Source: a virus (taxonomy: Duplodnaviria > Heunggongvirae > Uroviricota > Caudoviricetes). From it: DNA of 64,000 bases. Where the stretch lies: IMG/VR virus record IMGVR_UViG_2541047759_000001; one strand, written 5' to 3'. The stretch's first letter is position 1; every line of letters begins with the position of its first letter. Of the stretch, positions 13,335 through 15,220 are shown in pieces. A program made the position numbers and the translations under genes. Below the pieces are notes generated by a model that saw only the letters and a list, made by a program, of their open reading frames with translations, was not told the origin of the DNA and did no database searches.

Positions 13335-13440
13335 AGGTTGATTTTTCCGGAATCTGTGGTAAATTCGTCATAACAATGGGCTTTTTATGCCTGACGTTAG
13401 AAGAGTTTCTACAACCCGCCGCCGAGCGGGTTTTTTATTG
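13335..13440 (+). promoter_or_regulatory. Putative late promoter pR' and tR' terminator
   Basis: TTGATT (13338-13343) ... TAAATT (~13360-13365), then hairpin cccgccgccgagcggg + T-run (13415-13437). Confidence 0.5.
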
Positions 13441-13475
13441 CGGAATTAATTACGGACCGTTATTATTCTGCTCCC

Positions 13476-13551
13476 GGCCCTTTAGCTCAGTGGTGAGAGC
13501 GAGCGACTCATAATCGCCAGGTCGCTGGTTCAAATCCAGCAAGGGCCACCA
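13476..13551 (+). tRNA. ileZ: tRNA-Ile2 (anticodon CAU), ileZ/ileX-like
   Basis: GGCCCTTTAGCTCAGTGGT...CTCATAA...GGTTCAAATCC...AAGGGCCACCA cloverleaf. Confidence 0.85.
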
Positions 13552-13651
13552 TCACAAACCGCCATTAGCTTATCAGGAAGAGCAGACGACACGATAACAG
13601 GGTTGTTGGTGCGGGGGCGGGTCCCCGATGGCGGTCCATTATCGGTATTCA

Positions 13652-13725
13652 GCGTTGTTAGCTCAGCCGGACAGAGCAATTGCCTTCTAAGCAATCGGTC
13701 ACTGGTTCGAATCCAGTACAGCGCG
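13652..13725 (+). tRNA. argN: tRNA-Arg (anticodon UCU)
   Basis: GCGTTGTTAGCTCAGCCGGA...CCTTCTAAG...GGTTCGAATCC...ACAGCGC cloverleaf. Confidence 0.8.
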
Positions 13726-13838
13726 CTATATTCATTCTTCCAGATTCCTTCCGGCAGAGCCTTATACTGAAATATACCTGGCTCAGGATATTGTTGAAAA
13801 TATTTTATGTTTGTCAAAAATAAAAGTTCTGTTAAGTA

Positions 13839-14192
13839 TTGATTGAGTGTTTGTTATACGGTCTAATGGTTTTTTCAGCATTAAATATTTATCATTCATA
13901 TGGTGTGGGTAGAGTGAATATTGATGAGGCGTCGGGGTGTTTCATCCTTAGGCAGCGTATTGATATAGTCAATGCAGGACGAGCAAAGGCCTTCAGCCGT
14001 TTGACAGTTTTGTTCTGTACTCCTGATCGTCTTTCGGGAAGAGACGTTATTATTCTGAATAGTGATGCTATACAGAGGGTTTGCGATGAGTTCATGGTTG
14101 CTAATTCAGAATTATTTGCTCTTGTTCAGGAGTACAACAGAATAGCCAGTACCTGTGGTATGGATGAACTTCGGATTACTCATCTGGGGTAG
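13839..14192 (+). CDS. Hypothetical ORF in cargo slot downstream of the tRNAs
   Basis: 117-aa ORF, no recognisable signature. Confidence 0.25.
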   Translation: MIECLLYGLMVFSALNIYHSYGVGRVNIDEASGCFILRQRIDIVNAGRAKAFSRLTVLFCTPDRLSGRDVIILNSDAIQRVCDEFMVANSELFALVQEYNRIASTCGMDELRITHLG

Positions 14193-15220
14193 ATACATAT
14201 CTGGATTATCACTTGTTACGGTAAAAAGTGATTGCTTACTGTTTTTGTGAGTGGCATTGCAGCAGCCGGATAATGTCAGTGCTGGCTGACGGTGTGCTGG
14301 TGGCGGGTGTGGTGGTTGTTGCTTTCCCGTTGCTGAAAAAGAAAACGCCAGACTGTTAGCCGGGTATCAGTTAGCGGGAGAAATTTTTAAATACTTCACA
14401 ATTCAGGCGGTTGACTGTTGTCTGGTTTGCGGGGAGTTTGTTAAAAGAAACTGGCATGGTGAATCCCCCTGTGCGGAGGGGCAATCAGCGAGTAGGTATA
14501 TGGGATAATCGCGGATTCAGGTGCTGGTACTGAATTCACCGGGAGGCACCCGGCACCATGCAATGGCACATAGCGCCACTCTCCAGCCCCTCTCCGGAGG
14601 GGCTGTTTATATTGATTTTGTCAGATGTGAGTAAACTCCTTATGGACTTTGTTGTTTTAGTCCATAAGGACATATTTGCAGAGTGCAACGGTTATTAAAG
14701 CATTCATTCAATACGTTATCTGTATTTGTAGGACATTCCTGGCTGTTTTTGATTAAATTCCAGAATGTTTTATTGAATGGTGCTACGTTGTAAATGGTTA
14801 CAGGTAGCACTTTGTTATTGAGCATGATACCTGTGTGAGTCAGTGTAAATATACTTTCAGGAGGTAAGAAAGCATCCGATTGATACCAGATTATTAATTT
14901 TATTTTACTCCATATGACTGAAAAAGATATTCCGCATGATGGCTGGATAACTGTATCAATCACAATCCACTTCATTTAGTTTCCTTGTTTATGTCTTGCT
15001 GGTGATGTTCTGAAAAGTATAAATGATATTTTTGAATGTAAACCATAGAGCAGAATTATTTTTCTGATGTTGTTTATTGTTTATTTAAATGCAGGGTGGT
15101 TTATATCTCGTCTTGTAGTTTATCCATGCATATCTGCTTGATGATGAGGTTTTTATTTAAGGTATGGTTTTGTGTTTTTTCTGTATTACATGTCAGGTAT
15201 TTTAAAGAATTATTTTTCAG

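Follow-up and report, generated by a model that had tools for sequence, protein, structure and literature searches.

iraL, an STnc100-family small RNA gene and two small open reading frames between the tRNA and nanS-p-type genes of a potB-adjoining lambdoid prophage

What does a lambdoid prophage carry at the place of the Shiga toxin (Stx) genes when its late region has the gene order of an Stx phage and no stx genes are recognised in it? The question was raised by a 64,000-nucleotide stretch of viral DNA (IMG/VR record IMGVR_UViG_2541047759_000001; hereafter, the window), in which about 1.5 kb lies between a tRNA-Arg gene, downstream of the gene for the late antiterminator Q, and a gene for a nanS-p-type esterase. 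A first-pass annotation had described this slot as AT-rich, with two weak open reading frames (ORFs) and two hairpins, and had considered it either an empty or decayed toxin locus or one that held uncharacterised late-expressed cargo. We are confident that the slot (13727-15220) is instead a moron (accessory cargo) site that is fully occupied by four elements. On the late strand, these are a member of the phage protein family phrog_2873 and a DUF3927/TciB-like ORF, followed by a small RNA (sRNA) gene of the STnc100 family that ends in its own terminator. On the opposite strand, the anti-adaptor gene iraL has its own sigma-70 promoter and converges on STnc100.

The window proved to be a lambdoid prophage of the type that adjoins potB in extraintestinal Escherichia coli such as CFT073. 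Over the 5.4 kb compared (12511-17900) it was 99.9% identical to the potB-adjoining prophage of E. coli MCJCHV-1. The gene potB adjoins the prophage both in this near-identical relative and in uropathogenic CFT073, and the layout of the window is that of the "potB island" prophage of the latter. The order of features is the Q gene, a terminator hairpin, tRNA(CAT) and tRNA-Arg genes, the 1.5-kb slot, the esterase gene, DUF1378, DUF826 and a gene for a P21-type holin, and from Q to holin it agrees with that of phage 933W, the Stx1 phage 75/02 and an O157 Stx2c prophage. The first-pass annotation had recognised this order as that of Stx phages, which was borne out by profile and tRNA calls and by homology to those phages, and its positional reasoning was right in that the slot is the moron region between Q and the lysis genes. 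The gene order, the AT-rich slot, both ORFs and both hairpins are all present where it had placed them. The G+C content of the slot was 39.2%, compared with 51% for the whole window, although it was uneven: it reached 55% at 14425-14614 but was 34% within the minus-strand ORF, 31% at 13727-13913 and as low as 29% at 14976-15220.

The largest gene of the slot, the minus-strand ORF at 14640-14975, is iraL, a regulator that has already been published. This ORF had been considered weak, but its 111-residue product, an RssB anti-adaptor of the IraM/IraL family, matched the NCBIfam IraM model NF007393 over its full length with 162.4 bits against a cutoff of 121. It is identical to IraL of CFT073 (c1429; PMC12890032) at 110 of 111 residues, the sole difference being A65V, and the IraL of E2348/69, an enteropathogenic E. 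coli (EPEC) strain which has the same slot, is identical to the CFT073 protein. The window protein is 63% identical to K-12 IraM and matched the solved IraM chain 8twd_A at E = 2e-32. With at least 95% identity to CFT073 iraL, the gene belongs to the iraL clade and is distinct from iraM. The IraM/IraL identities among E. coli genomes were bimodal, with about 1,415 genomes at 95% or above and 3,330 at 60-80%.

Hryckowian et al. named IraL in CFT073 and mapped the iraL transcript's 5' end by RACE (rapid amplification of cDNA ends; PMC4045071). According to their report, CFT073 IraL, an RssB anti-adaptor characterised by experiment, keeps the stress sigma factor RpoS stable and binds only RssB's N-terminal domain, and iraL has its own sigma-70 promoter and is transcribed in growing cells (PMC4045071). 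The iraL mRNA has also been reported to go up in a fur mutant and at 37 C. Based on alignment with CFT073, the iraL promoter and 5' untranslated region of the window lie in the 29% G+C intergenic region shared with the nanS-p-type gene (14976-15220, minus strand). The RACE-mapped CFT073 end (ACATCACCAGCAAGGCATAAACAAGGAAACCA) was identical at 30 of 32 bases to the reverse strand of the window from 15008 downward, and by this match the iraL start is at 15008 and its -10 element, TATACT, at 15016-15021. The promoter region, including this element, aligned near-unchanged with CFT073 and with phage vB_EcoS-640R1. From the one-residue difference to the CFT073 protein, we infer that the IraL of the window binds RssB and stabilises RpoS. 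Transcription of iraL runs against the late-gene direction and, given this antisense orientation and the sigma-70 promoter of the gene itself, iraL would be cargo expressed in the lysogen, not late cargo.

One of the two hairpins described in the first-pass annotation belongs to this gene. It is a perfect 12-bp stem-loop that covers the final codons of iraL, stop codon included, and precedes the letters UUUACU (14637-14670, minus strand); its folding energy was -20.4 kcal/mol (z = -3.95), and none of 200 shuffled sequences folded as stably. K-12 iraM is without a stem-loop of this form. The structure is likely the 3' end or a stabiliser of the iraL mRNA.

The other hairpin is the terminator of an sRNA gene. 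The plus-strand segment at 14425-14614 matched the Rfam STnc100 model (RF02076) with 132.4 bits, against a gathering score of 47, and did so over the full length of the model (positions 1-206). Its terminator, a G+C-rich stem of 9 bp at 14584-14605 followed by a T run (z = -2.5), aligned to the consensus structure of the family. In addition, the published qPCR primers for STnc_100, an RNA that has been detected in Shiga toxin-producing E. coli by reverse transcription qPCR, had exact matches at 14455-14474 and 14528-14547 (PMC12370729). An STnc100 gene was found at the same late-strand place, 3' of a moron coding sequence and 5' of the esterase gene, in seven related loci (933W, phage 75/02, the Stx2c prophage, CFT073, mEp460, vB_EcoS-640R1 and JLK-2012), and in the first three of these it lies directly 3' of stxB. 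Thus, the proposal of uncharacterised late-expressed cargo does not hold for this hairpin-ended segment, which is a curated sRNA family, nor for iraL, which is experimentally characterised and antisense to late transcription; what is left of it are the two small plus-strand ORFs.

We considered whether the sRNA was PasD, PasA or PasB of EPEC and ruled this out, as probes for these RNAs had no match in the window, with up to three mismatches allowed, or in the compared loci. RefSeq has a partial "hypothetical protein" pseudogene at about 14444-14569 (minus strand) in MCJCHV-1, CFT073 and E2348/69, which is probably an annotation artefact because it lies wholly inside the STnc100 gene on the other strand. 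Phage vB_EcoS-640R1 carries two tandem STnc100 copies upstream of iraL (4165-4358 and 4634-4822 of the locus compared), which suggests duplication or recombination at the sRNA.

The comparison with Stx phages revealed where the stx operon would be. The backbone of the window (tRNAs, sRNA, nanS-p, DUF1378, DUF826 and holin) is homologous to that of Stx phages at 71-87% nucleotide identity. In a BLAST comparison with the O157:H7 Stx2c prophage, homology extended over 13445-13741, was interrupted by a replaced block and resumed over 14396-16423. At this block the Stx2c prophage has stx2cAB and the window has 13742-14395, which holds exactly the two small ORFs. Homology of the window with the Stx2c prophage and 933W stopped at 13736-13741, and the cassette boundaries obtained with 933W, phage 75/02, mEp460 and vB_EcoS-640R1 agreed with those from the Stx2c prophage. 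On the other side of STnc100, the element on the minus strand also differed among phages, being the anti-sRNA AsxR in 933W, the anti-sRNA AgvB in phage 75/02 and an IraM-family gene in the Stx2c prophage. No AsxR or AgvB was identified beside iraL, either in the slot by Rfam at E <= 1 or in the window by short-word BLAST. Because the block equivalent to stxAB and the position of the anti-sRNA or iraL flank STnc100, what the first-pass annotation had treated as a single toxin slot is two adjacent exchange sites parted by a conserved sRNA gene.

A protein search supported the second of these sites being separate from the first. It identified 46 phage records with an IraM/IraL match, of which four carry IraL itself (97% amino acid identity) and 41, nearly all of Stx2-type phages, have an IraM-family gene at 60-80% amino acid identity (71.8-74.5% among the matches listed). 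As iraL-family genes are found alongside stxAB in Stx2c phages, the two sites are independent of one another and not alternatives.

These data also bear on the idea of an empty or decayed Shiga toxin locus, left by an Stx phage after the loss of stxAB. The flanking backbone is indeed homologous to that of Stx phages, the middle one of three tRNA genes has decayed, and the nanS-p gene of MCJCHV-1 is frameshifted, indicating that some decay has occurred in this prophage lineage. However, searches of the whole window with Stx1A/B and Stx2A/B by tblastn, and with both operons by blastn, returned only matches at chance level, apart from one significant nucleotide match, of about 29 nt, to the spacer that follows stxB; it lies immediately upstream of STnc100. 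The position of stx holds two intact ORFs of conserved families, and the slot as a whole holds four intact, conserved elements and no remnant of Stx1 or Stx2. Moreover, about 1,185 of the 5,426 complete E. coli genomes surveyed have kept the segment at the stx position at 95% identity or above. The toxin-loss explanation is therefore refuted for practical purposes and we give it almost no credence. Of the surveyed genomes, 863 contained at least 80% of the slot and 2,861 at least a part of it, and the region of the longer small ORF was present in 1,312. The locus is thus common in E. coli, based on the numbers of genomes with the slot, iraL and this ORF region. The first-pass annotation had set against its own readings the possibility of ordinary intergenic sequence, as in stx-negative lambdoid phages, with no transcript or conserved ORF. 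The slot is homologous to that of stx-negative lambdoid prophages, but there it has conserved genes and, in CFT073, a transcript mapped by 5' RACE.

The first of the two ORFs at the stx position most likely starts at a GTG at 13914 and encodes 92 residues (13914-14192, plus strand); the version in the first-pass annotation, 13839-14192, is this frame read at its greatest possible length (117 aa). This ORF had also been called weak, whereas it matched phrog_2873 with 194 bits, and all of the homologues tested also matched that family. A HMMER search with the ORF identified 19 cluster representatives at E <= 0.001, several of which were 91-95 residues long with 34-65% identity, and most of the matches began at query residue 26. 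Comparison with a homologue of 56% identity gave a ratio of non-synonymous to synonymous substitution rates (dN/dS) of 0.34, and the differences numbered 35 at first, 33 at second and 54 at third codon positions. The excess of third-position changes points to purifying selection on the ORF. Other E. coli prophages encode homologues of it on the late strand, between Q and holin, and in prophages of other assemblies a 95-aa homologue, a TerB-like "TciA", DUF3927 and the holin occur in that order. A Citrobacter braakii homologue (43% identity) has neighbouring ORFs of the same sizes and order. A wider survey of genome contigs for the ORF identified three loci only, from E. coli, one metagenome-assembled genome and Citrobacter braakii. 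No Pfam or NCBIfam family was identified for the ORF, and its AlphaFold model was a two-helix hairpin with a predicted local distance difference test score of 70.

Two observations concern the surroundings of these homologues. An AraC-type (HTH_18) regulator gene (241 aa, phrog_1450) lies directly 5' of the homologue in some E. coli prophages, at 164-889 in one of the loci compared (L007) and at 4256-4981 in another (L016). A distant homologue (36% identity) is located beside a PapB-regulated fimbrial operon with no obvious phage context.

It might be argued that this ORF, whether read from 13839 or from 13914, is untranslated and that 13727-14424 is a promoter and leader, or a processed precursor, of STnc100. 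The NCBI annotation pipeline, PGAP, has no call for the ORF in MCJCHV-1, CFT073 or E2348/69, its GTG start is preceded by a weak Shine-Dalgarno sequence, and the G+C content there is 31-44%. In addition, since no separate promoter for STnc100 was found in our scan, the sRNA could be the 3'-end product of a longer transcript. Set against these points are the conservation of length and frame in homologues down to 34% identity, the excess of third-position changes and the dN/dS of 0.34, the 194-bit match to a PHROG family, and the fact that PGAP does call the 92-aa homologue in another E. coli genome, EC556. Furthermore, in 933W STnc100 lies directly after stxB without such a leader. We consider an untranslated leader an unlikely explanation, and continue to read the ORF as a gene.

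The second ORF at the stx position (14228-14359, plus strand) encodes a small hydrophobic protein of 43 residues and is annotated in RefSeq, unlike the 92-aa ORF. It matched DUF3927 (PF13064) with 95.6 bits against a cutoff of 25, and phrog_1470, "TciB-like", at E = 7.8e-13. Homologues of this protein are located between Q and holin or nanS-p in JLK-2012 and other prophages; in JLK-2012 the order is tRNAs, tciA, tciB, STnc100 and the esterase gene. The "Tci" names are labels by similarity, not tested function, and our literature search for TciB/DUF3927 returned unrelated or annotation-only papers and no functional study.

The position of these ORFs makes it conceivable that they, and not iraL, are the main payload of the slot, expressed in a Q-dependent manner on induction and acting at or after lysis, with iraL as a secondary passenger. 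The pair sits on the late strand at exactly the position of stxAB. In other prophages homologues of the two are again found together between Q and holin, including in the ORF arrangement at the Citrobacter braakii homologue, and a TerB-like TciA often separates them. The dN/dS of the longer ORF argues for a maintained protein. However, none of our searches gave either ORF a function or an informative structural neighbour, PADLOC had no defence-system match for any slot protein, and it is iraL that has direct experimental support and a mapped promoter, as reported for CFT073. That iraL-family genes accompany stxAB in Stx2c phages also speaks against such a ranking. We therefore regard a primacy of the late-strand pair as improbable, and prefer the reading in which all four elements are cargo of one moron site.

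How the four elements might work together can be outlined from their orientation and from what is known of lambda and Stx phages. In the lysogen, iraL would be transcribed independently of the phage late programme. As shown for the CFT073 protein, IraL would act on RssB's N-terminal domain and block the delivery of RpoS to ClpXP, and RpoS would go up in growing cells. The STnc100 terminator would stop plus-strand transcription that was not antiterminated before it entered iraL in the antisense direction. On induction, RNA polymerase modified by Q would start at the late promoter pR' and pass the terminator tR', the tRNAs, the small ORFs and the terminator of the sRNA; it would then cross iraL in antisense and go on into nanS-p and the lysis genes. 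This would make the two small ORFs late cargo in the manner of stxAB, and convergent transcription would probably damp iraL. An exchangeable cassette is delimited by the tRNA-Arg gene on one side and the 5' flank of STnc100 on the other; Stx phages have stxAB in it and the window has the two small ORFs. The tRNA-Arg and STnc100 genes may have served as conserved recombination anchors for the exchange of cargo. A second exchangeable site is the minus-strand position after STnc100, where different phages have AsxR, AgvB or an iraL-family gene.

Several observations weigh against parts of this scheme, in addition to the missing gene calls and poor translation start of the 92-aa ORF. The hexamers of the candidate pR' (13338-13365; TTGATT, 16 nt, TAAATT, read by eye from the sequence) fit the consensus at only 8 of 12 positions and were below the threshold of the promoter scan, so that this assignment is plausible but sub-threshold. 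In the slot, the scan gave neither the small ORFs nor STnc100 a promoter, and its six sigma-70-like sites there were no excess over the 4.5 +/- 2.5 expected from shuffled sequences. Foldseek searches with the model of the 92-aa ORF against PDB and BFVD returned generic coiled-coil matches only, none at E <= 0.001. The 3' hairpin of iraL has no good U tract, so the end of iraL transcripts is not fixed by it. Lastly, the timing in lysogen and induced cells, the read-through and the transcriptional interference are all suggestions from the orientation of the genes and the biology of lambda and Stx phages.

A more speculative extension is that the place 3' of STnc100 is a "host-regulator" slot that is switched off by induction and, separately, that the phrog_2873/DUF3927 pair is genuine Q-dependent late cargo. 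The slot may hold interchangeable, lysogen-expressed modulators, AsxR against FnrS, AgvB against GcvB and IraL-family proteins against RssB/RpoS, and these may be convergent to late transcription so that induction turns them off. The pair, in turn, may function at lysis or on neighbouring cells. The available parts of the related literature state neither idea, and we think it unlikely that the two hold together.

The slot is bordered upstream by the Q gene and the tRNA genes. Q (12511-13332, plus strand) is a late-gene antiterminator of 273 residues that matched Pfam Antiterm (PF03589) with 183.7 bits; it is labelled "antitermination protein" in the RefSeq annotation of MCJCHV-1 and CFT073, and is the upstream border of the moron region. 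The stretch from 13338 to 13440 (plus strand), based on sequence reading and a hairpin scan, would contain the candidate pR' and a short leader ending in a tR'-like terminator, for which the candidate is a hairpin at 13413-13432 followed by a T run, with a folding energy of -11.2 kcal/mol. Its counterpart in 933W is formed by the annotated pR', qut and terminator features 3' of the Q gene. The tRNA with anticodon CAT (13476-13551, plus strand; ileZ-type) was called by ARAGORN and by Rfam (72.5 bits); ARAGORN names it Met, and PGAP/RefSeq names the identical gene tRNA-Ile. Its sequence is identical in the window, 933W, CFT073 and E2348/69. The decayed remnant of the middle tRNA (13552-13651, plus strand) aligned with argN of 933W and CFT073, with the region of the anticodon arm diverged, and was not called as a tRNA by ARAGORN or by Rfam, even at E <= 1. 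The third gene, an argO-type tRNA-Arg (TCT) at 13652-13726 (plus strand; ARAGORN, and 68 bits in Rfam), is the left anchor of the exchangeable cargo segment.

The downstream border is the nanS-p-type sialate O-acetylesterase gene (15221-17197, plus strand), whose 658-residue product matched Pfam DUF1737, SASA and DUF6645 and phrog_143. At the nucleotide level it is about 71-74% identical to its esterase counterparts in 933W and phage 75/02. The ORF is intact in the window, frameshifted according to the annotation of MCJCHV-1, and cut to a DUF1737 fragment in CFT073. Further downstream, between the holin and lysozyme genes, is an ORF of 297 residues (18093-18986) with an N-terminal DUF1327 (YdfR-like) region of about 100 residues and a C-terminal extension of about 195 residues without a family match; RefSeq describes its MCJCHV-1 counterpart as an incomplete YdfR family protein. 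Two other RNAs were identified elsewhere in the window, DicF at 4491-4542 (minus strand; 76.7 bits) and, next to hokD, the Sok antitoxin RNA at 10309-10480 (plus strand; 106.7 bits).

The locus is essentially known, as iraL, the sRNA family and the layout of a moron with convergent RNAs have all been published, and it therefore does not add a new kind of system. The comparative gains are the exact segment that is swapped for stxAB, 13742-14395, between tRNA-Arg and STnc100, and the finding that iraL-family genes replace the anti-sRNAs AsxR and AgvB and co-occur with stx2c in Stx phages. The gain for annotation is a conserved phage ORF of 92 residues that about a fifth of complete E. coli genomes contain and the RefSeq annotation lacks. 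The portions of the related literature available to us contain no statement of the stxAB-equivalent segment, of iraL-family genes at the anti-sRNA position or of the 92-aa ORF family. These points are refinements that are useful for annotation and would not surprise a specialist.

Among known systems, the closest is the potB island of CFT073, which shares with the window the order of DUF968, RusA, Q, tRNAs, DUF3927, STnc100, iraL, esterase gene and holin; the region 13434-15393 is 96.8% identical to CFT073 at the nucleotide level. The two differ in that CFT073 has IS200C between Q and the tRNAs, and the window has no insertion sequence there. In addition, CFT073 has three intact tRNAs, whereas the middle one is decayed in the window, and its esterase gene is reduced to the fragment mentioned above. 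The portion of the report on CFT073 IraL that was available (PMC4045071) does not mention the lambdoid late-region context, the adjacent sRNA or the unannotated 92-aa ORF. K-12 iraM encodes a homologous protein of the same length class, and both genes have been horizontally acquired. However, iraM is located beside icd and ycgX and not in a region between Q and the lysis genes, and the two proteins are reported to act under different conditions and to contact RssB differently (PMC4045071).

The sRNAs PasD1/PasD2 of EPEC E2348/69 resemble the window sRNA in their location: they are late-strand RNAs with a small ORF before them and a nanS-p-type esterase gene directly downstream. PasD1/PasD2 depend on Hfq and are about 172 nt long (Pearl Mizrahi et al. 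2021; 2026 preprint 10.64898/2026.05.13.724894), and the same preprint describes them as structurally related to STnc100, although the sequences are unlike that of the window sRNA.

With the stx2 locus of 933W/Sp5, the window shares a moron coding sequence downstream of pR', a plus-strand STnc100-family sRNA, a convergent minus-strand element and a conserved esterase ORF. This architecture of enterohaemorrhagic E. coli prophages, a moron coding sequence, a convergent sRNA pair and a conserved ORF, was described by Tree et al. 2014 (PMC4104026). In 933W the minus-strand element is the 53-nt anti-sRNA AsxR, whereas the window has at that place a protein-coding gene with its own promoter, iraL, in lieu of a convergent anti-sRNA of the kind described by Tree et al. 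The Stx2c phages 2851 and 1717 and the prophage of O157:H7 strain 7.1_Anguil are closer to the window in this respect, as they have the same order of Q, tRNAs, cargo, STnc100, minus-strand IraM-family gene, nanS-p, DUF1378, DUF826 and holin, in a backbone of about 71-84% nucleotide identity. Their Q belongs to another family than that of the window and their anti-adaptor homologue has only 74.5% protein identity to the window IraL. The cargo between tRNA-Arg and STnc100 is stx2cAB in these phages and the two small ORFs in the window.

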